A stretch of 64,000 bases of DNA. It comes from Eledone cirrhosa. Lineage: Eukaryota. The position numbers were made by a program, and so were the translations under genes. The stretch's first letter is position 1, and every line of letters begins with the position of its first letter. Location: NCBI GenBank assembly GCA_964016885.1, contig OZ024741.1:383718001-383782000 (forward strand). Reading direction: 5' to 3'. A model generated the notes under the pieces. It was not told where the DNA came from, made no database searches, and saw only the letters and a program-made list of their open reading frames with translations. Positions 15,731-64,000 of this stretch are shown here, one piece after another.

Positions 15731-15831
15731 ATATATATATATATGTAGAAGTTCTATTTAAATTGTTGGGATACAGCAAGCAAATATTTTTATAACTGAT
15801 ATAAAGCACTCAACAAATTATTGGAGTAAAA

Positions 15832-16460
15832 ATACGATATATTAACAAATGGAAACTATATTTATAAAACCATATTTATTTCATTATACATATTTCAAGA
15901 ACATCAAGTTAAATTATGGTGTGCTTTCATCAGATAAAATATAATATAGATCAGTTTTATAAATAAATATTGACATACCCTTAAAGAATGCGTCCATTTC
16001 TTTTACTATTATGCAAATTAGTGTCGGATATTTTTAAATCACAGTAGATTTAAAATAAGCCGTTGGGGTATGGAGAAAGGGAATTGTTTTCTTATTTTCC
16101 TCTTAGAGTTTGCCCTTTTTTCTCTTTTTTCTCTTTTTTCTCTTTTTTCTCTTTTTTCTCTCTCTTTTCTTTCTCTTTCTCCATACCCCAACGGCTTATT
16201 TTAAATCTACTGTGATTTTAAAATATCCGACACTAATTTGCATAATAGTATAAATAAATTTATAACCCCACTATCCGGGAGCTTCCAAAAGAAATGATCG
16301 CATTATTTTAAGTGTATGTCAATATTTATTTATAAAACTGATCTATATTATATTTTTTCTGATGAAAGCACACCATAATTTAACTTGGTGTCCTTGAAAT
16401 ATGTATAATGAAATAAATATGGTTTTATAAATATAGTTTCCATTTGTTAATATATCGTAT
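15832..16460. mobile_element. Head-to-head inverted HHR element (arms 15832-16079 and 16175-16460)
   Basis: Arms are reverse complements around a pyrimidine-rich spacer; TA tracts on both sides. Confidence 0.8.
16351..16415 (+). ncRNA. Hammerhead ribozyme motif (mirror copy 15877-15941 on minus)
   Basis: TATTTTTT-CTGATGA-AAGCACACCA..TGGTGTCCTT-GAAAT-ATGT-ATA-ATGAAATA; ~9 bp stem II. Confidence 0.7.
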
Positions 16461-19500: not shown

Positions 19501-20189
19501 TATATATTGATTTCTAATTTAGGTTCAAGGTTAATAATTTGTGGGTAAAGGAGAATCGACAAATCGAACTTTGTACTATTTTATCGACTTATGCATATAT
19601 ATATGTTTGGGAATATATGCCCATGCATGTCTATTAGCTTATGCACGTGTAATTGTGGACGTTTAGGCACGTTGATATGTGTAGGTGTATGCATATATAA
19701 GTGTGTAAGATTATGCACTTGTATTCGTGTAAATCTAATCTCATGTATGCATGAAAATGTTTACTCATACATGAACATATGTGAGTTTAAGCACATAAAT
19801 GTGTGTTAATTTATGCACTTATATGTGTGACAATTAATATATGCCTGCGTGTGTTTATGGAAGAGACAAGACAAGTTAAAGAAACAGAAAATAATTACAG
19901 GCTGGAGAGTCATATAATTAAATAGCGACTATGATCGACAAAGTTAATTAAATATAATTCATTACACGAGATTTTAGTAAATCCCAAATTCCAGCATAAG
20001 ACCGTGTACGGAATTATTCTCTGACCCCGAGGGCATTAGCTGATTCGAACACGTCACTAGCAAATGACGCTTTATGCAGATAATTAATCCAGCAGGTAAT
20101 AACTAATCCGAACTCAAATGTAATGTCAAAGGATCTTCCTTCATATTGATTTCTGACAATCATATATTACACGATCTTCCTTTATATTA

Positions 20190-20670
20190 CAATGGTAAAA
20201 TAGCGAAGGTAGTGGTGATAGCGGCGGTGGTAGTGGTAGTGGAGTAGAAGGAGGTGGTGGTAGAGGAAGTGGTAGGAGATTTTGTGAGAAGAGTGACAGT
20301 TGTAGTGTTCGTGGCGGAAGAGTGGATTTGTTGTTGGAAGAGTAGTGGTGTTGTTGGCTGCGAAGGCGGTAGCGCTGTTGATATAAGTGTTCTTCTTTCA
20401 GGTTGAGGTATTGTTGGTGGTGTAGAAGTAGTGATAGTCGTAAAGGAGGCGGTGTTGGTAGGAAAAGGTTGTGTTGTAGTGTCCGTGGGGAGGAGTAGAT
20501 TGTTGTGTATTGGCTTTGGCGGTGGTGATGAATGTGTTGTGAATGAATTTACTGATATTGATATTGGCATTGTTGGAGCAGGCTGTGGTGATGGTGAGGC
20601 GTGTAGGAAGTAGCAGTAGAGGTGACGATGGTGGTGTTGGAGAGAGTGGTGGTGAAGGTGCTCGTGTTGT
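20190..20670. repeat. Degenerate (GGT/GTA)-rich low-complexity tract
   Basis: Direct reading. Confidence 0.7.
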
Positions 20671-22133
20671 TTTTATTGTTTCGTACCAGGTCAACCCTGA
20701 TTGCACTAAACTAAAATCAATAAAATTCTATCCGTGACCATCTTACGGTTCTATAATGTGCATGGAAACCAGAACTATATTGCAGATCGAGTTCTCCTTT
20801 TAAGACGGTAAAACGTGATTTGTGGTGGAGTTACCACGTCATAGTGTTTGTAGCACTAGTGGTGGCAGTGGTGTCGGTGGTGGTATTAGCCGTTGTGTCT
20901 AAAGTAACAGATGTGATGTAGATGTTAATAGTGAAGGTGGTGGTTATGGTGGAATTACATGCAAGCAACAAAAATATCTACCTGGTGGCGGATACCTTTG
21001 TCTGTTAATGTGAAATGTCTAATATATATACTTAAAAGGAATACCAAACTCAACTCTTGGTTGACCATTAAGCAACTTTAGCTGGTGTTTAGAGCCTATA
21101 GTAAAGAAGGGCCTCAGCAATGGCGGAGCCCCAGCATGGCCTCAGCCTGTCGGCTGTAATAGAGTAATTATCAAAAGGACATATGTATTTATGAGCGACC
21201 TTTTGGTGTAATATTTTTAAAAAGAGAGACCTCCAAGCTTTATGCATCTTAGGGCATCACCAAACTTTAATCTGACACTGGACAGACGTAAACAATGGCT
21301 ATTTTTAGTGTAAGGTAAAAACGGGAATAGTTTCCTGTAGCTTTCTTCAGAACTTAAGGGAAATTCAACTCACAACAGAGATTGTTAACTAACTAATTAG
21401 CTCCTTACAATCCGTAGCTTCCCTCTCCATGTTAACAATTTATAGCTATGTTATCTGTATCAGCGAAAAGTGTGCATACTCTTAACTGAACACAACATGA
21501 ATCGCTGAACCTTTGCTATGTTTTGTGACATTCTATCCACTTGCTCTGATGTCAGAAATGCTCAATACTGCAATCATGCTTTTCTTATTAGACAGACCTT
21601 CGTTTTCACGTTTTTATTTACATACTAATTACAAATATGAAATATGAATCCAAGAAAAATGTTACAGAAAACAGTCACAGAAAAACTCACAGGGTATAAA
21701 GCCCCATTTTACTTAATTATGATAAAAAGGGAAGTTTATTAAACATAGTGGAATCGTATATCTATGAAAAATATACGGGAAAACATCATTGAAAACTCTT
21801 AAACTCTGGTTTCATCTTTTTACTCTTTCCTAACCAAAAGAGTTACTTGTTTCTGTGTTTTTCTCAATTAAAAGTGTGACTATTTTTACTTTTTTCCATG
21901 ATTTCGTTCATCATGGAATATATCCGCCTATGAGGTAATAAAGTATATATTGCGCTAATGAATGAGTCTCTGCAATGTCATTTGGCCTGTCTTATACGGT
22001 GGATAATGTAGACAGAGGTGCATTGTGGCAAGAATAAAGATGGGATAGCCAAGACTATTTAATGGCGTTATTTTATAATTAGAAGTGCATAAGATATTAA
22101 AGATTCACTAACATCATTAACAATATATAGCAA

Positions 22134-30869: not shown

Positions 30870-30876
30870 CATTATA

Positions 30877-31631
30877 TACTATAGAGTAAAGCATGTCCAG
30901 AGAATTATTTGATAATATATATACATCATCTCTACTCCCAATCAGCATAATTAACCACACAAAAAATCAATTAGACCAGGCTATAAGAATAAAAGGCACC
31001 TATGAAGAAACAGTAAATAAATACGCCACAGCAGCGTCTTCGCGTGCAACCGCTATAGAATATTTACCCAACATTTCAACAGCACGTGGAAATTAATTAA
31101 ATATACGGTCAACCGTACATAATTAGGTAAAAATTAATGTTAGAAATGCTTATATACATACCAGGACTAAATCACTAAATCCCGACCCTAGGGTTTCGCT
31201 TACTTTTGAGATACCTTATTCAGGTTAATACTCGAGTTTTAGAGCTCTTCAGGGGATAAACTCGCTAGGACATATTATTTTCAGAAGTGGCCCCTGCCAA
31301 ACACGAATTCAAAATGGTTGAGAACTGTGACGTGGCAGTGGTCAAGTCAGGAAGGGTGTGATTGGTTGCTTACGGCGAGTGGGTTGGTGGCTAGAAAGCG
31401 CAGCCCAATATCGCCCAAATTTTTATCTCAACCTTATGGGAGATTATTAAATATAAATATTTACACATACACCAATTAAACAAAGTCACAGATATATATG
31501 TGTTTTGGCAACTGTTCACGATGTGGCTCAATTATTTGCTCTGATTATTTAATTTATTAATTCTCCATTGAGCCCCAAAACACATATATACCTGTGACAT
31601 TGTTTAATTGGTGTATGTGTAAATATTTATA
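30877..31631 (-). mobile_element. ~690 nt HHR unit family, copy A (main arm 30877-31532, inverted arm 31533-31631)
   Basis: Highly similar to 58405-58976 but starts at a different point; related to 32774-34160; between TA tracts. Confidence 0.85.
31179..31257 (-). ncRNA. Type I hammerhead ribozyme motif
   Basis: ATCCC-CTGAAGA-GCT...AGC-GAAAC-CCTAGG-GTC-GGGAT; complete core, perfect stem I, palindromic stem III. Confidence 0.88.
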
Positions 31632-31693
31632 CATTATATATACATATATATGTATAATATATATATATATAAAATACATAATGTATACATACG

Positions 31694-32655: not shown

Positions 32656-33157
32656 TATTATTAATATTATTATTATTATAAAATATGTTACAATCTTTTA
32701 ATAATGTCTTCCTTGTGAAATTTGTGGTCTTGTTTTGCTTAACTAATGAATATATATATATATATATATATATATAAAGGTTTACATATACATAAAGTTA
32801 TAGATATATATGTTGCAACCGGTCACTTTGTGGCTCTATGAAGAATTAATAAATTAAATAATCAGAGCAATATATCATAAATCATGTCTTTTGAATTATT
32901 AGATAAAATATATACCATTTCCTCTCCCAATCAGCATAATTAACCATATAAAAAATCAATTAGACCAAGCTATAAGAATAAAAGCTCTTATGAAGAAATC
33001 TCCAACAAATAACCGAAAGTGGCCTCTTCGCGGTGGCCCCAATAGAGTATTTATCCAACATTTCGACAGCATGTAGAAACTGACTAAATATACCATCAAC
33101 CATACACAATTAGGTGTAAATTCGAACTTAGAAGAAATGTGTACATACCGTAATTAT

Positions 33158-33235
33158 ATCTCTACCATGGTTTCATCCGTATTTTTAGACATCCAATTAA
33201 TAGGAAATGTCCAGAGTTAGGATTCATCAGGAGAC
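33158..33235 (-). ncRNA. Type I hammerhead ribozyme motif
   Basis: GTCTC-CTGATGA-ATCC...GGAT-GAAAC-CATG-GTA-GAGAT. Confidence 0.88.
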
Positions 33236-33803
33236 AAACTCAAAATTAGACATTTAGTTTTCCAAAGTGATCGCGCCAAAATTAGATTCAAAAATGGCTA
33301 AGAATCGCAATGTGGCAGTGGTCAAGTTAGAAAGAATGTGATTGGTTGCTTACGGCGGGTAGGCTTGTTGCTAGAAAGCGCAGCCAAATATCGCCACATT
33401 GTATCTCAACCTAACGGGAGATTATTAAATATAAAGGTTTACATATACATAAAGGGAGAGGAAATGGTATATATTTTATCTAATAATTCTAAAGACATGA
33501 TTTATGATATATTGCTCTGATTATTTAATTTATTAATTCTTCATAGAGCCACAAAGTGACCGTTTGCAACATATATATCTATAACTTTATGTATATGTAA
33601 ACCTTTATATTTAATAATCTCCCGTTAGGTTGAGATACAATTTGGCGATATTTGGCTGCGCTTTCTAGCAACAAGCCTACCCGCCGTAAGCAACCAATCA
33701 CATTCTTTCTAACTTGATCACTGCCACATTGCGATTCTTAGCCATTTTTGAATCTAATTTTGGCGCGATCACTTTGGAAAACTAAATGTCTAATTTTGAG
33801 TTT

Positions 33804-33881
33804 GTCTCCTGATGAATCCTAACTCTGGACATTTCCTATTAATTGGATGTCTAAAAATACGGATGAAACCATGGTAGAGAT
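33804..33881 (+). ncRNA. Type I hammerhead ribozyme motif (mirror of 33158-33235)
   Basis: Same motif on the plus strand. Confidence 0.88.
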
Positions 33882-34153
33882 ATAATTACGGTATGTACAC
33901 ATTTCTCCTAAGTTCGAATTTACACCTAATTGTGTATGGATATTTAGTCAGTTTCTATATCCTGTCGAAATGTTGGATAAATACTCTATTGGGGCCACCG
34001 CGAAGAGGCCACTTTCGATTATTTGTCGGAGATTTCTTCATAAGAGCCTTTATTCTTATAGCTTGGTCTAATTGATTTTTTATATGGTTAATTATGGTGA
34101 TTGGGAGAGGAAATGGTATATATTTTATCTAATAATTCTAAAGACATGATTTA

Positions 34154-34219
<66 letters not shown>

Positions 34220-42492: not shown

Positions 42493-42496
<4 letters not shown>

Positions 42497-43085
42497 GTGG
42501 TTACACAACAGTTAGTTCACCTTACCGAGAACAATTGTTTCACCTTCGCGGATCTTCAGCTCGGGATGTGTATGGTTATAGGAACAGGAAGTACAACGGA
42601 ACGAACGCGCATGCGCAGAAACTCTGTCACTTCACACAGGCAATATAGACTGCGTCCGGGAGGTGTAAGGGATATAACTGCGAAAGTCCGGAAAGTTTTT
42701 AGGTTGAAAATAAAATATAAAAATATTAAAAATAAAATTACAAAGAATCAGTCCGGAGCCTTGTAGTTATGCAATAGATGTTTGGTGACGTGTGGACAAC
42801 GTGTGAAAAATTCACTCTCGTGTTTAGGCAATCACTATTGCGTAATCTCTTTAGGATAGTTATTCGTTCGTCAATACATAAGCCACACGTCGGATTTCCC
42901 CTTGCGTATGGCTTGGTCTTAGTGATGGCTTTCCATTGAATGGAATAGCCTATACTTGAGTCCTTGAGGGACCATACGTGGCTGGCAAGTTTCGTGGATG
43001 AACGTCTGTCCGGGTGTCTGAAGGTAGACTGGTGGTTCAGGAAATGCTCCTTGAATCGGCCCTCCTCCATGTCCACATATATATA
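42493..43085 (-). mobile_element. 3' fragment of a second Penelope-like element (GIY-YIG C-terminus plus HHR-bearing tail)
   Basis: FKEHFLNHQSTF...TKLASHVW...IQWKAI...CGLCIDE...LNTR aligns to the endonuclease at 48760-49122; ends in (TA)n. Confidence 0.85.
42525..42564 (-). ncRNA. Minimal hammerhead ribozyme motif
   Basis: CCGAG-CTGAAGA-TCCGCGAAGGT-GAAAC-AATT-GTT-CTCGG. Confidence 0.82.
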
Positions 43086-43149
43086 TATGAGTGCCAATAC
43101 TGGAATTGAATAATCAAGACCGTAGCGGTATGTCATATAACAAATCATA

Positions 43150-43212
43150 TATTTTGTCTGATGAAAACGTTCTGAAACAACACAGTACCTTTGAAATATA
43201 TTTCATAAAGTA
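43150..43212 (+). ncRNA. Degenerate hammerhead motif
   Basis: TATTTTGT-CTGATGA-AAA...TTT-GAAATATAT-TTC-ATAAAGTA; 8 bp stem I, mismatch in stem III. Confidence 0.5.
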
Positions 43213-43493
43213 TATAATTTGATTATGCGAATATTTTTCACTTGTTAACATTTTGAATAATATTAAAAACTCCAGGAAAACACACTGTTGAGTGCTTCTA
43301 GCTACTGTAAAATTATATTCGTTGAGTAATCAACGAACCATACTAATCTTTGGTTATATATATATATATATATATATATATAGGAAAAGAGTCAGGACTC
43401 CAACGGCCGGAGCTCAGCCGGAACCACTCAACTAACCTAAAATGTAAGATACATCACTGAGGCATATTGATAATTAGTGGTGATGTATGTATG

Positions 43494-43596
<103 letters not shown>

Positions 43597-43811
43597 TTAA
43601 TTATTATTAATTATACTATTTATGGTTATGTAAATACAAAAACCTTTTGCAGTTATATGTATTTTTTTATACAAACCCTAAATAGTGGTAGGCAGTAATA
43701 TATTACTACCTTATTACCAGTAAGTTAAGTAGCTCAATGTAAAAACATCAGATGATTTACAGAGCAGTTATATGAAATATAAGAATCAAAGAACTGTTCA
43801 AGACATTTTTG

Positions 43812-43858
43812 TGCTTACAGCTGTTTCCTCCAAACCGAGGTTTAGATTCTTCGGAGCA
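43812..43858 (-). ncRNA. Hammerhead-like motif with CCGAAGA core in PLE 3' region
   Basis: TGCT-CCGAAGA-ATCTAAAC-CTCG-GTTTGGAG-GAAAC-AGCT-GTA-AGCA. Confidence 0.72.
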
Positions 43859-45307
43859 ATTTATTAATGAATGGACAGTTATATGACCTCCTTTTCACCC
43901 AAGAGACATACAGATACATATGCAAATATTGTGGGTCAACATTCATTACAGCATTTAAAGTGGCAGTACACACTTCGAGATTACATTCATATTAAAAGGT
44001 ACAATCAAGAATCAAAAATACAGGTTAAAATACAACATGAAAATAAGCGGTTATATAGTGCAAATGTTATATGAGTGGCAAGCACGTGCGTCTTGTTTAT
44101 ATAGTGTGGCAGAGAGTTACGTGTAGTAGAAGCACTTAGGTAGGTAAACAAGAGTGTTAGGTTGGTTGATCTGGTGGCAAATTCTTTATATGATTGTTAC
44201 AGTCTGTGTGTGGAGAAATGATATAAGCATTAAAAATAGTGTAAGCATTAAAAATATTAAAAATATTGGAAATGCACAGCGAAGGGATGATATAGACTTC
44301 ATGTACTTCGATATTTTCATGGTCAGGGGAGTGTATTTTTCAGATTATATTGCCCTCACATAATCCACGACAATTCGATATTGAGCGTTTGACAATCCAG
44401 TTAGAGAATCGTAGTCTGATGTTCTTTAGTTCAATACAGGAGGCTGTTACGTTTCGAGAATCGACATTGAATACTACCCGGAAGTGTGTGTGTGGCTAAG
44501 GGGAGTTAATGCATGAGGGGAGGTAACTCCGAGGTTTCTATTCCTAGCTATTGAAATGTGTCTCAATATAGACCCTAATTTCTATGGTTGTGCGCAACTT
44601 CCAAAATATTTCTAAAGCATAAAGTGTTTTAACTATAGAGTGTCTATTAAGTTGTGCTGAAGGTGTTCGTATTATTATGGTGAATTAACCCCCATCGTAG
44701 GGTGCCACAAATGAATATTATAGACGATGAGCGAGGATTCTAAATTAATGATCTCTGTGGTTGTAGTCTGCTCATAGGACCAGGCGCGGTGATTGCAGAA
44801 TCACTTCAACACTCAATGATCTCTGGTAAGTTCTGGGTCATCGCTTGTTACATTGGATGTCGAAAGATAATCATCACCTGGGCCGACCAGAGGTCAATCC
44901 GCAGTCCTCATGACCCCACTCTGACCATCAAATCATCCATATATGTACAACCCGCACGTCAGTTGCAATACATTCATTCGCTGCACTCAGCGTCCTGGTC
45001 CTACTGCTCAACAGCGTTACTAGATTAAATCGTTTTTCATCCGTCCAAGGAAGGCACTTCCTCCGCACAACACTACCAAGCCAATCAATTCATGCTTAAA
45101 TTACCTATAGAGCGGTGTAGTGCAGTTCAAGTGGGTGGATGTTGTCACACCTAACGTAGAGGTATAAATGGGTATTCTCTCTGCGAAAGGTTCCAGAGGG
45201 ATGTCGTTGTTTGTGTTATATGAGATCAGTTAGTGTTGGGTATGTGGTATAAGGTGTGCCCCTGGTGTTTGATGCTAGATGTGGTGTTTGGTTCAAGTCC
45301 GACCTTG

Positions 45308-47464
45308 CTATATATTGGGCTTAAAGTTTTGGAAGGAATGTCTGAAGCGGTGCTGGCAAGTTGCAAACACCTCAGATTTTTTGTTAAGTAGGTTACGGTT
45401 AGAGAAGATAATATTGTGGGTCTCTAGTATACAGAGGTTACAAAATTTATTAGGTGGTTTGTACGAAGTTGCGCTGCCTATCACTTCCCATTTGAGTGTG
45501 TATGGTTTATTTTTAGTTTTTAGATAGTGTATGTAGCTAGATAGTGAGGTGGAGTTGGCTAGGCTGTGCTTTTTGAACGAGTGGATGTGCGAATTATATC
45601 TGATTTTGAAGCAGTTAGAAGTGGACCCTACATAGGTTTCTGAAGAGTTGCTAGTTGTGACGGTGCATGATTATATGATATCCTTGGTTAGGCATTTTTT
45701 ATCTAAAGGGCAGGTTCTATTAGCTCTACAGTTACAATTATCCTGTGTGTTAGTCTGCTGGTTATAATGCAGTGCAGAAGTCTGGGTGGTAGCTATAGGA
45801 TTTTGGACATTCGGGTTGTCAACCCCGGTGTTATTTCTTATACTAGTGTTATTTCTATTGTTACTGCCGTTACTATGGTTGCTTGCTACAGAGGTATTTA
45901 GAAGGTTTGCATCCTGTTGTGATTTCGTTTGTTGGAAGTAAGAATTAATTTTACTTTTATTGCTGCTAGCTATGTGGTATGCTAAGTTAGGCATCGTAGA
46001 GTATGAGATTTTAATAGTGTTTTTGTTTAAAAGGTTGTGGTACTTGTGTCCTAGAGGGAAGTTTTTATCTAGTAGTGAGAAGAAAGCCATAGGTATGTTG
46101 GTGGAGACATTTAGGTTGAAAGGAGGGTTTAAAAATGTATTATTTCTTCTTCTATTTTTGTTTTTAGTGTTTGATGTGTTGTTTCTTCCTAAGGCACCAC
46201 AGTAGTTTCCGTGGTAATAGTTACTTCCGGTGGCACCCTCCGCTTTGGTGTACTTGTGGTTGCTATTCCTATTATTAGGTTTCCTCATGGACATGTTGTG
46301 CGAGATGATGTTGTAGCTATGTGTTTTCTTAGGTAGGAACTCAATTTCTATATTATGGCCGGATCTAGCTAATGCTTGATTGTAATATTGTGAGTTTTTG
46401 CTAAATATGTTTGCGTCATAGGATAGACTAGAGATTCTATTGGATACCCCCTTAGAGATAGAGTTTAATATTGATCTAGGGTGATTAGACTTGTTATCTA
46501 CGTAAATTAGTTTTTCGTTAGGCTTATGGAAAGGTGTATATATTTTTGAGTCTAGGTATAGTGTGGCGTCTAGGAAGTTAACATTTTTAGTGTTTTTGTC
46601 CATGGTGATACTAAGGTTAAAGTTTTTGAATGTCTTGTGCAATTGTTTTCTAGTTCTTTCTATATTAAATTTTTTATATTCTATAAGTAGAAGTGCATCA
46701 TCGCGGTACAAACCACCGTTGAGGTAAGGGAGGTCCTTATGGATTTCATTAAGAAGGTATAGGCCGACCAAATCAGTGACCTGCGCCGAATCACTAGATC
46801 CCATGGTTATGTCGAAGTTGTTGTGCGTATCCTTGCGTGTCCATAGTTGGTCCTCGAAGGTGATTATGGTTTTACGGGCCGCAAGTATGACATCAATCTG
46901 GGCTCTAGTCAAGTCGCTATTGTTTATGGCCATGATAAGTGCCTTATTTAATAGGATAGGGGAAATAGAGGTGTAGTATGATCTCAAATTGAATAAATTT
47001 GTTGTCCTTATTATTCTTGATATCTTTGAACCATTCAATCACTTCACCCGTATTTCCACATTGTTTAAGGTGTATCTTGTGTTTAATTTGTGGGATGATT
47101 TTATCCAAAATTTTCTTGCTGATAATACCAATGTCGGACTTGGAAGGGCAGATAAGTCTTATCGAGGGGTTGCTGATGAAGTCCTCCTTATGGTCCTTCA
47201 GAGAGAATATAGGGGGGTTTGGGGTGAATGGTTGTGTATGCCTCTGAAGTCCTAGTTTAGACACTATATTATATCCCTCTATATTAATATCTTCTAAGTT
47301 TTTCAAGGTGGTCTTCTTGTAGCTTTTATGTAGTTCATTATATATAAACTTTCTATAAGTATTATAATCTAGGCTGTATATGTTATTAGTTTTATCTGCG
47401 TGTACAATAATTTTATTACTAGTTTTGAATCCATTAATAGAGGTGTTAAGTTTGTTTAAGAAGG
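45308..47464 (-). pseudogene. PLE RT-GIY-YIG ORF, disrupted
   Basis: Frameshift near 46980 (QFEI../YTSISP); TAA at 45671-45673 in place of the Tyr of IIY. Confidence 0.85.
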
Positions 47465-49122
47465 TTTCCCCTATCCTATTAAATAAGGCACTTATCATGG
47501 CCATAAACAATAGCGACTTGACTAGAGCCCAGATTGATGTCATACTTGCGGCCCGTAAAACCATAATCACCTTCGAGGACCAACTATGGACACGCAAGGA
47601 TACGCACAACAACTTCGACATAACCATGGGATCTAGTGATTCGGCGCAGGTCACTGATTTGGTCGGCCTATACCTTCTTAATGAAATCCATAAGGACCTC
47701 CCTTACCTCAACGGTGGTTTGTACCGCGATGATGCACTTCTACTTATAGAATATAAAAAATTTAATATAGAAATAACTAGAAAACAATTGCACAAGACAT
47801 TCAAAAACTTTAACCTTAGTATCACCATGGACAAAAACACTAAAAATGTTAACTTCCTAGACGCCACACTATACCTAGACTCAAAAATATATACACCTTT
47901 CCATAAGCCTAACGAAAAACTAATTTACGTAGATAACAAGTCTAATCACCCTAGATCAATATTAAACTCTATCTCTAAGGGGGTATCCAATAGAATCTCT
48001 AGTCTATCCTATGACGCAAACATATTTAGCAAAAACTCACAATATTACAATCAAGCATTAGCTAGATCCGGCCATAATATAGAAATTGAGTTCCTACCTA
48101 AGAAAACACATAGCTACAACATCATCTCGCACAACATGTCCATGAGGAAACCTAATAATAGGAATAGCAACCACAAGTACACCAAAGCGGAGGGTGCCAC
48201 CGGAAGTAACTATTACCACGGAAACTACTGTGGTGCCTTAGGAAGAAACAACACACCAAACACTAAAAACAAAAATAGAAGAAGAAATAATACATTTTTC
48301 AACCCTCCTTTCAACCTAAATGTCTCCACCAACATACCTAGGGCTTTCTTCTCACTACTAGATAAAAACTTCCCTCTAGGACACAAGTACCACAACCTTT
48401 TAAACAAAAACACTATTAAAATCTCATACTCTACGATGCCTAACTTAGCATACCACATAGCTAGCAGCAATAAAAGTAAAATTAATTCTTACTTCCAACA
48501 AACGAAATCACAACAGGATGCAAACCTTCTAAATACCTCTGTAGCAAGCAACCATAGTAACGGCAGTAACAATAGAAATAACACTAGTATAAGAAATAAC
48601 ACCGGGGTTGACAACCCGAATGTCCCAAATCCTATAGCTACCACCCAGACTTCTGCACTGCATTATAACCAGCAGACTAACACACAGGATAATTGTAACT
48701 GTAGAGCTAATAGAACCTGCCCTTTAGATAAAAAATGCCTAACCAAGGATATCATATAATCATGCACCGTCACAACTAGCAACTCTTCGGAAACCTATGT
48801 AGGGTTCACTTCTAACTGCTTCAAAATCAGATATAATTCGCACATCCACTCGTTCAAAAAGCACAGCCTAGCCAACTCCACCTCACTATCTAGCTACATA
48901 CACTATCTAAAAACTAAGAATAAACCATACACACTCAAATGGGAAGTGATAGGCAGCGCGACTTCGTACAAACTACCTAATAAATTTTGTAACCTCTGTA
49001 TACGAGAGACCCACAATATTATCTTCTCTAACCGTAACCTACTTAACAAAAAAGCTGAGGTGTTTGCAACTTGCCAGCACCGCTTCAGACATTCCTTCCA
49101 AAACTTTAAGCCCAATATATAG
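47465..49122 (+). pseudogene. PLE RT-GIY-YIG ORF with internal TAA at 48757-48759
   Basis: Frame continues after the stop: SCTVTT...TYVGFTSNCFKIRYNSH...KWEVI...CNLCIRE...LLNKKAE...CQH...PNI*. Confidence 0.88.
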
Positions 49123-50571
49123 CAAGGTCGGACTTGAACCAAACACCACATCTAGCATCAAACACCAGGGGCACACCTTATACCACATACCCAACACTAA
49201 CTGATCTAATATAACACAAACAACGACATCCCTCTGGAACCCTTCGCAGAGAGAATACCCATTTATACCTCTACGTTAGGTGTGACAACATCCACCCACT
49301 TGAACTGCACTACACCGCTCTATAGGTAATTTAAGCATGAATTGATTGGCTTGGTAATGTTGTGCGGAGGAAGTGCCTTCCTTGGACGGATGAAAAACGA
49401 TTTAATCTAGTAACGCTGTTGAGCAGTAGGATCAGGACACTGAGTGCAGCGAATGAATGTATTGCAACTGGCGTGCGGGTTGTACATATATGGATGATTT
49501 GATGGTCAGAGTGGGGTCATGAGGACTGCGGATTGACCTCTGGTCGGCCCAGGTGATGATTATCTTTCGACATCCAATGTAGCAAGCGATGACCCAGAAC
49601 TTACCAGAGATCATTGAATGTTGAAGTGATTCTGCAATCACCGCGCCTGGTCCTATGAGTAGACTACAACCACAGAGATCATTAATTTAGAATCCACGCT
49701 CATCGTCTATAATATTCATTTGTGGCACCCTACGATGGGGGTTAATTCACCATAATAATACGAACACCTTCAGCACAACTTAATAGACACTCTATAGTTA
49801 AAACATTTTATGCTTTAGAAATTTTTTGGAAGTTGCGCATAACCATAGAAATTTGGGTCTATATTGAGACACATTTCAATAGCTAGGAATAGAAACCTCG
49901 GAGTTACCTCCCCTCATGCATTAACTCCCCTTAGCCACACACACACTTCCGGGTAGTATTCAATGTCGATTCTCGAAACGTAACAGCCTCCTGTATTGAA
50001 CTAAAGAACATCAGACTACGATTCTCTAACTGGATTGTCAAACGCTCAATATCGAATTGTCGTGGATTATGTGAGGGCAATATAATCTGAAAAATACACT
50101 CCCCTGACCATGAAAATGTCGAAGTACATGAAGTCTATATCATCCCTTCGCTGTGCATTTCCAATATTTTTAATATTTTTAATGCTTACACTATTTTTAA
50201 TGCTTATATCATTTCTCCACACACAGACTGTAACAATCATATAAAGAATTTGCCACCAGATCAACCAACCTAACACTCTTGTTTACCTACCTAAGTGCTT
50301 CTACTACACGTAACTCTCTGCCACACTATATAAACAAGACGCACGTGCTTGCCACACATATAACATTTGCACTATATAACCGCTTATTTTCATGTTGTAT
50401 TTTAACCTGTATTTTTGATTCTTGATTGTACCTTTTAATATGAATGTAATCTCGAAGTGTGTACTGCCACTCTAAATGCTGTAATGAATGTTGACCCACA
50501 ATATTTGCATATGTATCTGTATGTCTCTTGGGTGAAAAGGAGGTCATATAACTGTCCATTCATTAATAAAT

Positions 50572-50618
50572 TGCTCCGAAGAATCTAAACCTCGGTTTGG
50601 AGGAAACAGCTGTAAGCA
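50572..50618 (+). ncRNA. Hammerhead-like motif with CCGAAGA core (mirror of 43812-43858)
   Basis: Same motif on the plus strand, ~40 bp before (TA)n. Confidence 0.72.
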
Positions 50619-50649
50619 CAAAAATGTCTTGAACAGTTCTTTGATTCTT

Positions 50650-50731
<82 letters not shown>

Positions 50732-54996: not shown

Positions 54997-57470
54997 GTTT
55001 GCTCGATTGTTCGGGGGGGGGGGGAGTGGTGGGTCAGAGACGGTAGTGGACTTCAGTCCCTACCTCGACGGCTTGCCACGCCTCTGGACGGCCGACGCTG
55101 AGTGCTGCGAAAGGCCGATAACTTCAACCGAAATTCAGGATTCTCTTGTCGGCTGCGCGAGGCGCAAGTCACCCAGTTTGAATGGTCTACCCTACGAGCT
55201 TTACGAAAATATACCACACTTGTTCTCCGATTTCCTCGAAGCGCTCTACTGCAATTCGCAGAAGAACGGGAGTATTCCCAGTTCTGTGAGCCGGGGCGTA
55301 GTGACGCTGATAAAGAAAGACGAGAACAATAAGGATACATTAGATAACTTCAGGCCCATAACTCTGCTCAATACAGAGTTTAAGATGTTGGCCAAGGTGT
55401 TAGCGAAGAGGCTGGCGCTTGGCGTCGAGGATTTGGTTGGGGGGGGCGCAAACTTGCGCAATCCCGACCAGGTCCATAGACGATAACCTCGACTTCATGC
55501 GATACTTCATAGAGATGGTAGAGTGTAAACCTGGCTTCGGTGCGGATCTGATCAATTTAGATCAATCGAAAGCATTCGATAGGGTCCACCATCGGTACCT
55601 GGAGGCTATCCCCAAGGCAGCTGGCTTCGGCCCCGTCTTCAGAAGCTCGATCGCTGCAATGGACAGCGGTATCTGCTCGGTGGTCAAAGTTAAGGGCAAC
55701 CTCTCGGAACCGTTTCAGATCTCTCAATCGGTCGGTCAAGGGTGCCCTCTCTCCTGCCTTCTGTACGTATTGACTCTCGAGCCTTTACTGTGGAAGCTGG
55801 AGCTGTTGCGGAGTATCCCTCTCGAACCGAGACGCGGAAAGGCTGTGTCAGCTTATGCGGACGAAATCACTGTGATTGTGTTGGACACCTTGGAAATCGA
55901 GGTAGTCGGCACCTTATTGGAAGAATATTAAAGGTTGACGGGAGCAAAACTTAACCCTGAAAAGTAGTTGGGCTTGCAACTCGGCACCTGAAGAGGCAAG
56001 TTCATGCCGTCCAACAGTGTCGCTGGGCGCTGGACGGACGGACCGGTAAAGTTTCTCGGGGTTTGGTTCGGGCCAGATCTCCAGAAGGATAATAATTGGG
56101 ACGATGTGACGGGCAGGATAGCCAATCTCACCCAAAAATGGGCAGCGAGGAAGCTATCCCTGAAAGGTCGGGTGGAGGTGGCAAATGTGTACATCGCGTT
56201 CGTCATCGACTACCGCCTAAACGTCGTGCCTTGCCCCGTCCGCCCCTCGCCAACTTGGAACGGCGCCTCTTCCCATTTTTGTGGAGGGGACAGGTTCCGT
56301 TGGTGAGGCGGTCCATCTGTTGAAGCACCCTATACGCGGAGGGCTGGGTATGCCGTGGCTAATGATGCTCAGACATGGGCTGAGGCTCGGTCATCTCCAG
56401 ATATTCTGCCTAAACGGTGAACATGATGGTCGCCGTTTGTCGGACGGGTCATTCCGCAGCTCGTCTCTTTGACTGAGCTGCAATCCTGGGTCAAGAAGAG
56501 ACCGAGACTGGCTGAGTGGCATCTGGAATGTTGCCAGGCACTCACTGCCCTCTACCAGGCGGGAAATGCGGTCAGTGGAACTTCCACTCTCGAGTTCTAT
56601 AGAGGATTAGTGGTGGGCAATTGCGATGTCGCACACGGAGAGATTCTGGGCGTCGACAAAACCGAACTAACCAGTCTGTTCCGGAGGACTTTCGAGCCGG
56701 GGATGATGGATAACTTCCAAAAATCCCTCGCTTGGCAGTGCTACCGGGGGGGGGGCACTGCCGGTTTGAGATGAACTCTACAGGTACGGAAGTGCTGTCA
56801 GATGGACTAGCCTGAGATGCGCGCAGTGCGACGAGACCGTTCTGCACGCACTCATCCAGTGTCCATGCATTACTGACTTGTGGTGTTATGTCGAACAGCT
56901 GTTGTCGTGTGTAGAACGGATCCGGCTATAGTCCATATCCATAGTGAAGATCGACCCGCCGCCTTCTTTTGTCCAGGAAGGGCAGGCAATTTTCCTCTGT
57001 CTTGTTGCAGTAGTGAAAGATGTATGGTGGACCAGGTTGAAAGGACTGAAGACAGACCCTTTTCTCTTCAGCCAATCACTCATCAACTTTTTCAAGTTTC
57101 ACTTGGAAAGGAAGTTGAGGGTGGATAGAGAAGGCTGCCCCCCCCCCCCCCCCCACCAGTACATTTTTGCTGAAAGGTGGGTGGCGAGAATGGCCCGTGT
57201 GAGCTTACTTTGATCATGCGCCTGTAGGCTGGTGAATTTTAAGGAGAGGGGTGCCCATTCCGGGTGCTCACGAAGCGTTGAGAGGTTCAGGATTGGTGGG
57301 GCACCTGAATCAACCCTGGATGGTTATCCCCCCTATTGGTGAATTTTCATTGTTGTATTTTTCTTGTTTATTGTTATTGTTTTTCTATTTTTTACTCGAA
57401 TTTTGTGTAAAACCCCCACTGTCTTCTTCTATTGTATTGTCCCCTATATGTTGGCTCTTTTGGCCAGTAA
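54997..57470 (+). mobile_element. 5'-truncated, degraded Tx1/L1-type LINE related to 3724-7592
   Basis: DNFRPITLLN, DQSKAFDRV, QGCPLS, YADE; several stops and frameshifts; similar 3' end. Confidence 0.9.
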
Positions 57471-58404
57471 ATCAGCTAGCCAGCAAATGTCAATATAATA
57501 CTGAATATTAGCGAAAAGTAGAATATTTATGCTGACTTAATGAGGAGTCACAAAGACTATACCTTTATATTTGTACCTGAGATCATTAGGACACTTGGAT
57601 ATGATACTAGTTCAGTACAAATCTTGCGAAGCTGGGCTTCACAAAACCGGAAAGGAAAGGAGCCTATCTCAGAAACGGTCAAAGGAAACTAACTATCCCT
57701 ATTTCTATTGCTGGTATTAACTGCCTGTCAGAAAGAGGATGGATATGATCTCAGCGCTCTCACGACAGGATCAAATACTGGGTCTTTAATTATTCTGCCA
57801 ATCTACCGGCCCCAGAATGGTACTTTAGCTATCGAACTCGAATGGATAATAGGAGAATATTCCTATTGCAGTATTCGAACTTGGAATGCAGAGACCCGGA
57901 ATAGATATCGACGCTTTAACAACTCTGCCAATTCACCGCAGAAATTAAACCAAGCCCCCACATATTGAAATACATATATATACATATAGAATACACTTCA
58001 TCGCTGAATTCATTGTTTCTGGCGTGGAAGCGTATGAACACATGACATCCTCGTGAGTATGCTTGCAAATAAAGTATATGTGCGTTACGTTTTATACACC
58101 ATCCTTTATAAGTTGATTCTCAACTCTATTTTTAACATTGGTTTCGACAATTAGAGCACGTTCGACAATTCAAGCACATTTTTTCTTATTGACTTTTGTT
58201 GATTATATAAAATGTTTGTATTCCAGATATTTCGGTTCTCCCAACACCAGATCACTCTGAACCACAGTGTACACAGGTTTATGATTCTCTTTGCAACACC
58301 ACTAACAAAAGCAGTATTTCATCATAGACATCTACTATGATCATCTGACTACCAGAAGTACAATACGTCCAGGGTTATATATATATATATATATATATAT
58401 ACAC

Positions 58405-58976
58405 TACACCAATTAAACAAAGTCACAGGTATATATGTGTTTTGGCAACTATTCACGATGTGGCTCAATGAAGAATTAATAAATTAAACAATCAGAGCAA
58501 AATACTATATAGTAAAGCATGTCCAGAGAATTATTTGATAATATATATACATCATCTCTACTCCCAATCAGCATAATTAACCACACAAAAAATCAATTAG
58601 ACCAGGCTATAAGAATAAAAGGCACCTTTGAAGAAACAGTAAATAAATACGCCACAGCAGCGTCTTCGCGTGCAACCGCTATAGAATATTTACCCAACAT
58701 TTCCACAGCACGTGGAAATTAATTAAATATACGGTCAACAATACATAATTAGGTAAAATTAAAGTTAGAAATGCTTATATACATACCAGGATTAAATCAC
58801 TAAATCCCGACCCATGGGTTTCGCTCACTTTTGAGATACCTTATTAAGGATGAATCTCGAGTTTAGAGCTCTTCAGGGGACAAACTCGCTAGGACAGATT
58901 ATTTTTCGAAGTGGCCCCCGCCAAACACGAATTCAAAATGGTTGAGAACTGTGACGTGGCAGTGGTCAAGTCAGGA
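58405..58976 (-). mobile_element. ~690 nt HHR unit family, copy C (different permutation from copy A)
   Basis: Begins with the sequence that ends copy A, then runs into the sequence that begins copy A; abuts (TA)n. Confidence 0.85.
58804..58881 (-). ncRNA. Type I hammerhead ribozyme motif
   Basis: GTCCC-CTGAAGA-GCTC...GAGC-GAAAC-CCATGG-GTC-GGGAT. Confidence 0.88.
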
Positions 58977-59373
58977 TGGTTAATTTATCTGGCAATAAAT
59001 GTTTATCATTGATTGATTACAAATACAGATATAACTATATATATATAGTCTATCAAAGTTCTTTCGTCACACATCTGCAACATCATCAGTGGTACTATTA
59101 TGTTCCCTCCCGTTGTATTGTAATGCTTACGCCATTTTTATTTTATTTATATATATATATACAAATAAAATATAGAGTTATTAACTCATATTGATACCCT
59201 GCAATTAACAACCTCAAAGTATAAATACTGAGCATTATAATATTAATATATGTAGAAATATACACAGTAAATTCTGCGTCTAAAATTACGAGGGTAGATT
59301 ATACCACTAATGTTTTATGTATTTAAACTGAAGCATACAGTAAGATACAAGATTTCCTATACATACCGATTTC

Positions 59374-60182: not shown

Positions 60183-61284
60183 ATCACCTTGACTGACCAG
60201 TCTATCGGGCGTCCATTCGGCGCTGCTGGTCACATTCCTCTCTGGATCGTGCTTTCCTCATCTATGTAGTCCCAATCGTATTCCGAAAATCGTAACTCCA
60301 CCTTCGTGGAGGCTTTCCGAGTGGTCGTTTCCGCTCGCGTGGGTACCACTCGGCAAGTGCGCGGGTCCACCGATTATCGGTGAACCGGGCGACGTGTCCA
60401 GCCCATCTGAACTTTCTGCGCATATATTCCATGACGTCCCTCACGCCGGACTTCTGCCTGATGATTTCGCTCCTGGTGTGCTCTCACAAAGAGATTCCTA
60501 GCATTGATCTCTCCATGGCTCTTTGATCCATTACCAGCCTCTGCTCTTCTGCCTTCGTTGGAGCCCAAGTTTCACTGCCATATAACATTGCAGGTAAAAC
60601 TGTGCTAATGAAGAGGTTAGCGCCGGTGGTCTTGTCCAACCTCCCCTTGAGCACATCCCTTATGCCGTTGAACTCCTTCCATCCGGCCCTTACTCTCCGC
60701 GAGATCTCACGCTCAATGTCTCGGCGCATGTTCACTTCTTGTCCTAGGTAGACGTATTCCTCCACCTCCTCTATTTCATCACCGCCAACCACCATTCGAC
60801 TTGTTGGCACGTTGTCGGACCGCATGAACTTCGTTTTCATGCGGTTTATCTTGAGCGAACGAAAGAGTACAAGATGCCTCTTTGCGTCGCGGTCGTAGAC
60901 TACGAGAAAGCCTTCGACAGCGTCGAAATCAACGCAGTGCTGAACTCGCTGCAGAGGCACGGATTCGAGGCGCAATATGTTCAACTGCTCAGGGACGCGA
61001 GTTATGGATGCACCACCGACATAGCTCTTCTGTCATCATCCGTACGAGTGCCGGTCGAGAAGGGTGTGAAGCAAGGTGATACGATCTCTCCAAAACTTTT
61101 CACAGCGTGTCTTTAGCAGATCATCAGAGGCATTGACTGGCAAGGCCGTGTCAACATCAACGGCGAGATACTTACCCACCTCCCTTTCGCTGATGACATC
61201 GTACTCATCGCTGAAACCACAGATCTGCTTCAGACCATGCTGACGCAGCTCGACATTAAAAGCTCTGCAGTAGGCTTCAAGATA
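60183..61284. mobile_element. 5'-truncated RTE LINE with inverted 5' segment (60183-60854 minus; 60855-61284 plus)
   Basis: Plus: DYEKAFDSV, GVKQGDTISP, FADD...VGFKI; minus: LKINRMKTKFM, YVYLG, RWAGHVAR. Confidence 0.88.
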
Positions 61285-61323
<39 letters not shown>

Positions 61324-61443: not shown

Positions 61444-61837
61444 GTAATAATAATAAATTTGAAGACTAAAATCCAAAGAGGGCTCGATAAGGATAAATAT
61501 ATATCAAATATATAAGAACCGTAGGGCAAATATTTATTAAAATAACAGATTAAAGTTTAAGCAAAGAATCGCTGCTTTCACCCTTAACGGGTTCTTAAAT
61601 AATAATCAACTGTGAAAATTGTAAACTTGACTGTCACCACAGCATATGAACCTGAAGATTGCGAAAGCGTATAAAGTACTTGTTCAATTAACACTTAACA
61701 TTTAATATTTTACCATACTATTTCATTATAATATCATTATAATTTTAAAGGATTGTAAATAAAACGTGTATATCAGACACATTTGGAATTCCTTTTATTA
61801 ATATAATCTTCTATACACAATCATACACACCCGTGTA

Positions 61838-61930
<93 letters not shown>

Positions 61931-61966
61931 ATGTGTGTGTATGTGTGTCTGTAGTGTTTGTGTGTA

Positions 61967-62001
<35 letters not shown>

Positions 62002-62017
62002 AATATGTGTGTATATA

Positions 62018-62055
<38 letters not shown>

Positions 62056-62213
62056 TATATATCATATATTTATATATATATATATATATATGATTATCAA
62101 TATATGGAAAAGAATGAAACGAAATTTCTTATACATACTTATATATATGAATACATATATATACATATGCATATATATACATATGCATATATATATACAC
62201 ATATATATATACT

Positions 62214-62249
<36 letters not shown>

Positions 62250-62254
<5 letters not shown>

Positions 62255-64000
62255 TAAGTGTAATGAATTCTTTTACAATGAAATTAGCTCAAAGAAAGAA
62301 ATATTTCTGAGCCGTATAAAACATTTAAATATAAATTAATATATATGATGAAACACAAATACCAACATATCTGTAATTATATTGTAAAAGAAAATTTAGT
62401 TAGCTAGAATGAAGTATACTAATTATAATATTACAGTCTGCCCATATCGATTTAAAATAATAAATCAACAAAGACAAACAGTATTGCCAAATGGCCTTGA
62501 TGTTTAGACACATTTAAATTTCAAAATAAAACCTGTTCCGTAGATAAGTTTAAACTTTAAAATCCAAATATGTTTCGAGATAAAAGAAAGTGTAAGGATA
62601 TCATGTCCTGCTCTCTTCAGTAAACATCCAGGAACACATTGATATGCTTCACTTCCAAATATTTTAAAAGACTGTGTAACGCACATGGTTTACAGTTTCT
62701 AGCTAGCCTCATAACCGTACTGCTAGAAATAACAGCCGTATATATGAGGCTACTTTCAGCTCAACCTAAGGAGCAATAATATTAAGTGGAATGAATTCGT
62801 TTACAATGAAATTAGCTCAAAGAAAGAAATATTTCTGAGCCGTGAAAAACATTTAAATATAAATTAATATATATTATGAAACACAAATACCAACATATCT
62901 GTATTTATATTGTAAAAGATAATTTAGTTAGCTAGAATGAAGTATACTAATTATAATATTACAGTTTGCCCATATCGATTTAAAATAATAAATCGACAAA
63001 GACAAACAGTATTGCCAAATGGCCTTGATGTTTAGACACATTTAAATTTCAAAATCAAACCTGTTACGTAGATAAGTTTAAACTTTAAAATCCAAATATG
63101 TTTCGAGATAAAAAAAAGTGTAAGGATATCATGTGCTGCCCTCTTCAGTAAACATCCAGGAACAAATTGATATGCTTCACTTCCAAAAATGTTAAAAGAC
63201 TGTGTAACGCACATGGTTTACAGTTTCTAGCTAGCCTCATAAACGTACTGCTAGAAATAACAGCCGTATATATGAGGCTACTTTCAGCTCAAACTAAGGA
63301 GCAATAATATTAAGTGGAATGAATTCGTTTACAATGAAATTAGCTCAAAGAAAGAAATATTTCTGAGCCGTGAAAAACATTTAAATATAAATTAATATAT
63401 ATATGATGAAACACAAATACCAACATATCTCTATTTATATTGTAAATGAAAATTTAGTTAGCTATAAGGAAGTATACTAATTATAATATTACAGTCTGCC
63501 CATATCGATTTAAAATAATAACTCAACAAAGACAAAGAGTATTGCCAAATGGACTTGATATTTAGACACATTTAAATTTCAAAATCAAACCTGTTCCGTA
63601 GATAAGTTTAAACTTTAAAATCCAAATATGTTTCGAGATAAAAAAAAGTGTAAGGATATCATGTTCTGCTCTCTTCAGTAAACATCCAGGAACAAATTGA
63701 TATGCTTCACTTCCAAATATTTTAAAATACTGTGTAACGCACATGGTTTACAGTTTCTAGCTAGCCTCATAACCGTACTGCTAGAAATAACAGCCGTATA
63801 TATGAGGCTACTTTCAGCTCAACCTAAGGAGAAATAATATTAAGTGTAATGAATTCTTTTACAATGAAATTAGCTCAAAGAAAGAAATATTTCTGAGCCG
63901 TGTAAAACATTTAAATATAAATTAATATATATTATGAAACACAAATACCAACATATCTGTATTTATATTGTAAAACAAAATTTAGTTAGCTAGAATGAAG
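62250..64000 (-). repeat. Tandem array of 528-530 bp units (at least 3.3 copies, runs off the window), one HHR-like motif per unit
   Basis: AAATTAGCTCAAAGAAAG at 62281, 62809, 63337, 63867; starts directly after a TA-rich tract. Confidence 0.93.
62542..62629 (-). ncRNA. Hammerhead-like motif (also 63070-63157 and 63600-63687)
   Basis: GGATGTTTA-CTGAAGA-GAG...CTC-GAAAC-ATATTTGGATTTTAAA-GTT-TAAACTTATCT. Confidence 0.7.

Follow-up and report, generated by a model that had tools for sequence, protein, structure and literature searches.

A tandem array of long-armed type I hammerhead motifs in Eledone cirrhosa, probably a non-LTR retrozyme

Introduction

Do the repeats at one end of a 64,000-nucleotide stretch of the Eledone cirrhosa genome (contig OZ024741.1; the whole analysed stretch is called the window here) encode a hammerhead ribozyme, and to which class of element do they belong? 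A preliminary description had seen a satellite-like array of 529-bp units, each with a hammerhead of atypical stem III. It had read the array as a product of rolling-circle retroposition that could release unit-length RNA. Cervera and de la Pena (2020; PMC7229834) described type I hammerhead repeats of animals as transcribed, self-cut and circularised by an RtcB-type ligase, and proposed that they are copied by Penelope-like proteins. A Penelope-like protein is reported to nick AT-rich DNA, and its hammerhead to cut only with the protein present (PMC11167929). In the type I hammerheads described from animals, stem III is usually short and dimers are often required (PMC4209133, PMC7761336, PMC6155905, PMC6765202, PMC8490949, PMC2837043).

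Results

The array and its setting

BLAST and alignment placed a head-to-tail array at 62251-64000, with its RNA sense on the minus strand, and the array runs beyond the end of the window. A BLAST search with unit 1 (62251..62778; 528 bp, its left edge uncertain by a few bases owing to TA microhomology) returned 62779-63308 (96.4%), 63307-63838 (96.1%) and 63837-64000 (97.6%). The other units, on the same strand, were set at 62779..63306 (unit 2, 528 bp), 63307..63836 (unit 3, 530 bp) and 63837..64000 (unit 4, a part of 164 bp that is cut by the window and whose ribozyme lies outside it). The tandem array itself was thus confirmed, as three full units and 164 bp; for its unit size, the alignment gives 528, 528 and 530 bp instead of 529 bp. 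Pairwise comparison of the full units shows 19, 20 and 21 differences in 528 positions (approximately 96% identity). The G+C content of the array is 29%, and the array is non-coding, with a longest ATG-started frame of 60 aa.

Because the RNA sense is minus, position 62251 is the 3' end of the array. The earlier observation that the array starts at a TA tract held: its left end abuts a (TA)n-rich microsatellite at 61836..62254, which is likely its insertion target. BLAST within the 64-kb window found no further copy of the unit, only short AT-rich matches. Searches for relatives of the unit in GTDB genomes and in phages, which cover prokaryotes and phages rather than animal genomes, gave 0 matches. 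In the 164-nt overlap of the four units, 3 of the 14 variable columns place units 1 and 4 together, and likewise units 2 and 3. This grouping points to at least some duplication or conversion at the DNA level, and for this particular array the rolling-circle origin put forward earlier is a conjecture.

Fold of the hammerhead and its cleavage site

A type I hammerhead was found on the minus strand in all three full units. A descriptor that allows a long stem III reads each unit as stem I (8 bp), CUGAAGA, stem II (3 bp), loop II (31 nt), GAAA, stem III and GUC. The core boxes and the NUH triplet of type I (CUGAAGA, GAAA and GUC) are thus present in 3/3 full units, and the junction is closed by stem I (8 bp) and stem III (20-21 bp), with stem I open. 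Stem III consists of 20-21 contiguous pairs and 6 apical pairs (approximately 27 bp) and spans 66 nt, and the whole ribozyme measures 130 nt.

By descriptor and folding, the hammerhead of unit 1 lies at 62499..62628 (minus). Its stem I is at 62621-62628/62499-62506, its core at 62614-62620, stem II with loop II at 62577-62613, GAA at 62574-62576, the stem III hairpin at 62508-62573 and C17 at 62507. Those of unit 2 (63027..63156, C17 at 63035, a G.U pair in stem II) and unit 3 (63557..63686, C17 at 63565, a G.U pair in stem I) are on the same strand. The predicted cuts follow C residues 62507, 63035 and 63565; monomers of 528 and 530 nt would result.

The folding energies of the three motifs ranged from -29.9 to -38.5 kcal/mol, and the fold given here lies 3.3, 4.9 and 7.0 kcal/mol above the minimum-energy fold of the three units. 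Pair probabilities in this fold were 0.74-1.0 for stem I and 0.81-1.0 for the first 19 pairs of stem III. Three pairs can be written for stem II, including the basal G-C (G10.1-C11.1), and their probability is approximately 0 in pseudoknot-free folding of all three units. Stems II of 1-2 bp are known from active hammerheads (PMC3088659).

The preliminary description had recognised the string CTGAAGA-GAG..CTC-GAAA on the minus strand, which is present in 3/3 full units, and a pairing-preserving change in unit 2, which is an A>G substitution that yields the G.U pair in stem II. Its pairing scheme was abandoned. A 2-bp stem III with a 16-nt loop, a GUU site and stem I GTTTA/TAAAC lies 21.4, 29.8 and 30.5 kcal/mol above the minimum-energy fold; a descriptor restricted to short stems III returns this pairing in 3/3 units, and it has no folding support. 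The circular fold first showed that the strand after GAAA pairs with a strand 66 nt downstream, and the GUC site lies 46 nt past the site proposed before. A stem I extending approximately 20 bp from the former site was also considered, and gave way to the combination of an 8-bp stem I and a long stem III. A 36-bp internal duplication, called a tandem repeat by TRF, is better explained as the two quasi-palindromic strands of stem III.

Rfam gave 0 hammerhead matches in the 64-kb window at the gathering score, and the other hammerheads of the window were missed too. Two local Rfam searches gave 13 and 8 weak matches, none of them to a hammerhead.

Chance expectation, strand bias and conservation

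In 100,000 dinucleotide shuffles of the unit, scanned on both strands, none reached stems of 8/3/8 bp; with laxer stems, 5 reached 5/3/5, 48 reached 5/3/2 and 305 reached 4/2/2. When GAAA, the stem III hairpin and C17 were fixed and the rest was random, the core and stem II arose together with a stem I of 8 bp in 3 of 2,000,000 sequences, and with one of 5 bp in 19 of 2,000,000. The hammerhead pattern is far beyond chance.

The long stem III carries a strand signal. On the minus strand, units 2 and 3 have 6 G.U pairs in this stem and unit 1 has 5 G.U pairs and one U.U, with no A.C in any unit; for 6 pairs, simple arithmetic gives this bias a probability of 0.5^6 = 0.016. The presence of G.U without A.C favours an RNA helix over a decayed DNA palindrome. 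The fold of one monomer was more stable than its shuffles (z -7.3, 0/100); with 30 shuffles, the same monomer gave z -8.3 for the minus versus -3.9 for the plus strand. A second monomer folded modestly (z -2.9 minus versus -2.4 plus, 30 shuffles).

There are 31 variable columns in total, none of them in the 13 core positions. The ribozyme has 6 variable columns of 130 and the rest of the unit 25 of 400 (Fisher p 0.67), a comparison that has little power either way at approximately 4% divergence. No excess conservation of the ribozyme over the rest of the unit was measurable in these three near-identical units, which are too alike to show selection. Both substitutions in stems I and II preserve pairing, as would 36 of the 186 possible single changes; this concerns two events only. 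In unit 1, a pair is lost through one change at the apical end of stem III.

Pairing between loop II and the 5' flank of stem I

The 5' flank of stem I (62629..62653 in unit 1, minus) is complementary to loop II over approximately 20 pairs with bulges, and is a candidate for a pseudoknot or for a blocking hairpin. When 40 nt of flank was included, a core-sequestering hairpin of flank and loop II was better than the active fold by 14.0, 8.5 and 8.8 kcal/mol; the folding program cannot model pseudoknots, so these energies compare with the pseudoknot-free active fold. In folded circular monomers, the probability of stem I was 0-0.04. Because the program is blind to pseudoknots, the same complementarity may activate rather than block. 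Where stem II has 1-2 bp, pseudoknots between the stem I and stem II regions are reported to rescue the hammerhead (Perreault et al. 2011, PMC3088659). The pairing may thus be a pseudoknot that props stem II, or an inhibitory hairpin.

Nine motifs were tested for a helix directly beside stem I and stem II, with P taken against local sequence. Such a helix has 5 bp in unit 1, 7 bp in the motif at 58804 and 5 bp each in those at 33803 and 33157 (P approximately 0.005 each); in units 2 and 3, it has 3 bp (P approximately 0.05). The motif at 31179 has 3 bp by this rule, and a 7-bp duplex that begins about 1-3 nt further in was left uncounted. None was found in the motifs at 15877 and 43147, which rules out the pairing as a universal feature. 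An adjacent helix of 5-7 bp is therefore present in 4/9 motifs and missing from 5/9. The contact occurs in three families with differing sequences and is absent from two, and 2/3 array units carry a change in it.

Other hammerhead elements of the window and a common upstream block

The same descriptor found five other type I hammerheads in the window, whose stems III are short and mostly palindromic. Relaxed scans added 43147-43215, 42530-42559, 15048/15555 and a degenerate pair within a Penelope-like element. In 11/11 motifs checked, a TA run lies no more than approximately 410 nt 3' of the cut, in a window where TA runs are frequent. The array has the same orientation to its TA tract as the other hammerhead elements, and this counts against a coincidental pattern.

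A profile search joined three elements into one family. The element at 30876..31650 (minus; hammerhead 31179-31257) has a second copy at 58390..58980 (hammerhead 58804-58881), and the two are 95% identical to each other and 72% identical to 32777..34161. The latter comprises two inverted arms of a non-coding 649-bp head-to-tail unit, with hammerheads at +33803-33882 and -33157-33236, a short palindromic stem III, a 49-nt stem II region and TA tracts at both ends. Its layout has been described for Penelope-like insertions (PMC8557442). Its loop II has two possible pairings, one within stem II and one with the 5' flank, in the manner of a strand-exchange switch. The two copies at 30876-31650 and 58390-58980 have two alternative 3' ends that are separated by approximately 100 nt and recall the 'tail' of Penelope-like elements, and one compensatory change in their flank:loop II pairing was seen by eye.

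A motif block on the minus strand, AGGTTGAG ... GGCTG...TTTCTAGC, recurs in the array at 62722..62767, 63250-63295 and 63780-63825, where it precedes the core by 147 nt. It is common to the array and to the 30876-31650 and 32777-34161 elements, where it stands 147-182 nt before the core, and we infer that it is a candidate internal promoter. The 3' end of the array and the left arm at 32777 both end in TA just before this block, in the same register. A profile built from the three non-array copies matched the array units with E values of 0.00085, 0.0065 and 0.18, which are optimistic because the block was chosen by eye; a one-sequence profile gave 0.79 and 1.6. A whole-element profile of the neighbouring family did not find the array. 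Alignments of the whole unit with its neighbours had scores that were matched by 2, 17 and 50 of 1000 shuffles in three comparisons, and the other four comparisons were null. These sequence comparisons lend modest support to a common descent of the array and the neighbouring hammerhead elements.

Further short elements were observed. A short AT-rich element occurs twice at 15760-16460, in opposite orientations and with 84% identity; one hammerhead lies at 15877-15941, and its copy at approximately 16360-16410 is less intact. In the interval 14949-15720, a short element whose cores are hammerhead-like is present three times (15048, 15555 and, inverted, approximately 14978-15045); a 33-bp tandem repeat lies beside these copies at 15391-15488.

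Penelope-like elements and the candidate partner

A broken Penelope-like element with Hydra-clade motifs is located at 43769..50661 and ends in TA. It lies in a 3.2-kb inverted duplication (99% identical) and has an in-frame TAA at 48757-48759 and degenerate hammerheads near both ends (50576-50614 and 43816-43854). Its motifs (DKT, CxCx5C, YRDD and, at the C terminus, a GIY-YIG-like region) are given as characteristic of the Hydra clade, a group with (TA)n insertion sites (PMC8557442). A Pfam search left the Penelope-like ORFs without a family assignment (4/4), and their identity was drawn from homologues and motifs. Among the matches listed, the best-scoring named relatives of two retroelement proteins of the window belong to cephalopods, with Argonauta hians and Octopus bimaculoides at 35-41% for one protein (3 of the 6 NCBI-named matches among 120 listed), and Acanthosepion pharaonis at 53% for the other (the one named match among 120 listed).

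The Hydra-clade element was rejected as a direct parent of the array, which has no similarity to its 3' region; its ribozyme is different and degenerate. Judged from its sequence, this element is context indicating that the machinery exists in the genome, rather than a demonstrated partner. A GIY-YIG-like fragment (42738-43202, minus) was also observed within 42493-43360, with the hammerhead-like motif 42530-42559 just before a TA tract; it stands back to back with the hammerhead element at 43147-43215.

A different likeness was seen by eye in the supplement of PMC8557442. The ORF starts of octopus Naiad consensus sequences match the ribozyme core of the array and the bases that follow it, one of them over 18/19 nt with one gap. 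No second core half was seen by eye in those consensus sequences; the paper marks 8 Naiads with a half core and the second half 35-50 nt away.

Other repeats and coding remnants

Two decayed L1/Tx1-like copies (endonuclease, RVT_1, zf-RVT), 74% identical, lie at 3772-7190 and 55047-57139. Reverse transcriptase fragments in both orientations, which we take to be RTE-like, lie at 60193-61285, just left of the TA tract. A dispersed repeat of 140-230 bp, probably a SINE, has at least 6 copies (18109, 22111, 27623, 32446, 53309 and 59691), and a second dispersed family occurs at 2652, 10050 and 14420. Ser/Thr/Pro-rich open frames at 20141-20727 (minus) possibly represent an exon from a host gene of mucin-like type; the one frame run against Pfam had no match.

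Discussion

Class and proposed mechanism

We believe that the array is a non-autonomous, Penelope-dependent retroelement, a non-LTR retrozyme in tandem, and give this reading a probability of about 0.68. By sequence definition it is a non-LTR retrozyme, and its mobilisation was probably by Penelope-type elements. Li et al. (bioRxiv 10.64898/2026.07.22.740005) define the class by at least two consecutive units, each with a complete type I hammerhead below -5 kcal/mol; the array has three consecutive units of this kind, as found with our own descriptor and not with their RNAbob models. Its non-coding units (60 aa), G+C content below 50% (29%) and unit size of a few hundred bases (528-530 bp) also agree with the class. 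The 3' end of the array is joined to (TA)n, the preferred target of a Penelope-like partner, in a window where TA tracts are common. Homology to a pLTR is absent for the Hydra-clade element of the window and weak for the other non-coding hammerhead elements, and the likeness to Naiad was found by eye. A minimal animal pLTR hammerhead has a minimal or short palindromic stem III and needs dimers; the stem III of the array spans 66 nt, so the array was not filed there. The reading of the preliminary description as retroposition with unit-length RNA is supported in part, since it fits the evidence and the described class, although the structure on which it was built was wrong.

The following mechanism would fit. 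An internal promoter in the upstream block would drive transcription of the minus strand across several units. The hammerhead would cut after C17 and release monomers of 528-530 nt, and no partner hammerhead would be needed because stem III is already long. A host ligase of the RtcB type could circularise the monomers. A (TA)n-targeting Penelope-like protein with reverse transcriptase and GIY-YIG domains would then copy multimers or circles into a nicked TA tract, and unequal exchange might afterwards reshape the array. The pairing of loop II with the 5' flank could prop the weak stem II as a pseudoknot, or could keep the RNA off until the protein refolds it.

Competing explanations

The array may also be a dead relic, in which one pLTR-like or retrozyme unit entered the TA tract and was amplified at the DNA level by unequal crossing-over to a satellite whose ribozyme no longer cuts. 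We consider this unlikely, while taking it seriously. The units differ at 19-21 of 528 positions, the ribozyme shows no conservation beyond that of the rest, units 1 and 4 stand against units 2 and 3 in three columns, stem II is weak and a blocking hairpin is predicted. A local route from pLTR to array is proposed by Li et al. (bioRxiv 10.64898/2026.07.22.740005), in whose in vitro assays 1/9 predicted Xenopus retrozyme dimers cleaved and 8/9 elements were without cleavage. However, the core is intact in 3/3 units and the helices are kept, at a divergence (approximately 4%) that gives little power. A relic would share the origin of the tandem retrozyme that we prefer and would differ from it only in present activity.

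It is improbable that the repeats are the terminal repeats, in tandem, of a Penelope-like element, autonomous or truncated, with its ORF beyond 64000. The array extends past the window at its 5' end, the expected place for such an ORF, and Penelope-like elements make partial tandems and insert in (TA)n (PMC8557442). Against this, autonomous tandems alternate pLTR and ORF (PMC4209133, PMC11167929), whereas at least 3.3 non-coding units follow each other here with no ORF between them. The units also have no similarity to the 3' region of the Penelope-like element of the window.

Helitrons end in TC on the 5' side and in a hairpin and CTRR on the 3' side. An ordinary AT-rich satellite, or a Helitron- or MITE-derived repeat with DNA hairpins and a coincidental hammerhead pattern, is very improbable: Rfam has no hammerhead match, and the unit has several other hairpins and a plus strand that also folds better than shuffles, but 0/100,000 shuffles reproduced the pattern (3/2,000,000 with the hairpin given), the G.U bias is on the ribozyme strand, the orientation to the TA tract equals that of the other hammerhead elements, and neither CTRR nor a TC terminus is present at the one visible end of the array.

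Meaning and wider reading

The array as a tandem retrozyme would by itself be ordinary, because the class is known; it seems to be a known class with a new structural variant, a long-armed hammerhead. The long stem III should remove the need for dimers and would let dimer dependence be tested as a control of the ribozyme. The miss by Rfam suggests that counts of animal retrozymes are too low, and 'no hammerhead' calls in some Penelope-like clades may be limits of the descriptors. Within one 64-kb window, the data offer invertebrate support for retrozymes as passengers of Penelope-like elements, a proposal that its authors tested in vertebrates only (bioRxiv 10.64898/2026.07.22.740005). The array may also be a source of small circular RNA in cephalopods.

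A wider reading is speculative, and we consider it unlikely. The array could belong to an overlooked hammerhead group of this lineage, characterised by a very long loop II paired to the 5' flank of stem I; in the array, this contact would reach approximately 20 pairs and stem III approximately 27. The ribozyme of the array would be active as a monomer and carry a built-in switch, on in the multimer or when bound by the partner protein and off in the circle, and its partner would be of the Naiad type. The core halves are spaced 37 nt apart in the array and 47-49 nt apart in the related families, and this spacing was likened to the 35-50 nt of the Naiad half cores. The Naiad clade is reported as being without canonical hammerheads (PMC8557442). 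Motifs of this kind escape Rfam and probably the usual descriptors. One published consensus in the supplement of PMC8557442 has, by eye, a complete type I hammerhead with a 45-nt loop II that resembles a GT-AG intron; an intron-like loop II would be another way in which a long loop II could hide a ribozyme.

Comparison with known systems

In the literature covered, which was partial, no report of a long helix III or of a pseudoknot in animal tandem repeats was found, and no report of cephalopod retrozymes; PMC13282606 has 0 occurrences of 'ribozyme'. The closest systems are the metazoan non-LTR retrozymes of coral, mussel and axolotl (PMC7229834, bioRxiv 10.64898/2026.07.22.740005). They share with the array non-coding low-GC tandems with one type I hammerhead per unit, a self-paired monomer and co-occurrence with Penelope-like elements. 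The 528-bp unit compares with 150-450 bp in PMC7229834 and 51-972 bp in bioRxiv 10.64898/2026.07.22.740005. The stem III of approximately 27 bp and the 31-nt loop II of the array differ from the 1-2 bp or short stable stem III described for these retrozymes. The circle of the array is predicted to block its own ribozyme, which PMC7229834 describes in animals for some mussel circles only and as the rule in plant retrozymes and viroids.

Satellite-like arrays of type I hammerheads are also known as pDo500 of Dolichopoda crickets (PMC2837043), and as newt satellite 2 and schistosome SMalpha/W (PMC8490949). The unit of pDo500 is similar in size (approximately 497 positions; PMC2837043). The ribozymes of these satellites are compact and often need dimers (the single form of pDo500 has 49 nt, and W an 'extremely short stem III'), whereas that of the array has 130 nt (PMC2837043, PMC8490949). 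The pLTR hammerheads of Penelope-like elements resemble the array in being type I, in G10.1-C11.1, a pair that can be written for the array, and in their association with insertion into (TA)n; those of animals have a minimal or short palindromic stem III, and in the Hydra clade loop II has 3-10 nt and stem III 3-4 bp (PMC4209133, PMC8557442 File S2).

A large helix III and activity as a monomer are described for type I hammerheads of fungal and protist Penelope-like elements, bacteria and phages, chrysoviruses and mammalian introns (PMC4209133, PMC13725137). They have no canonical loop-loop contact, as may hold for the array, and chrysoviruses tolerate a very short helix II. In contrast, these hammerheads are not reported from tandem animal repeats in those sources, and they were compared by description. 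Pseudoknot-stabilised hammerheads (PMC3088659) resemble the array in Watson-Crick pairing of the stem I/II region, which is a candidate contact in the array, and in stems II of 1-3 bp, and they include all three types and human C10orf118. Their contacts comprise approximately 4-6 bp, versus the approximately 20 bp that are possible in the array and that could equally inhibit its ribozyme.
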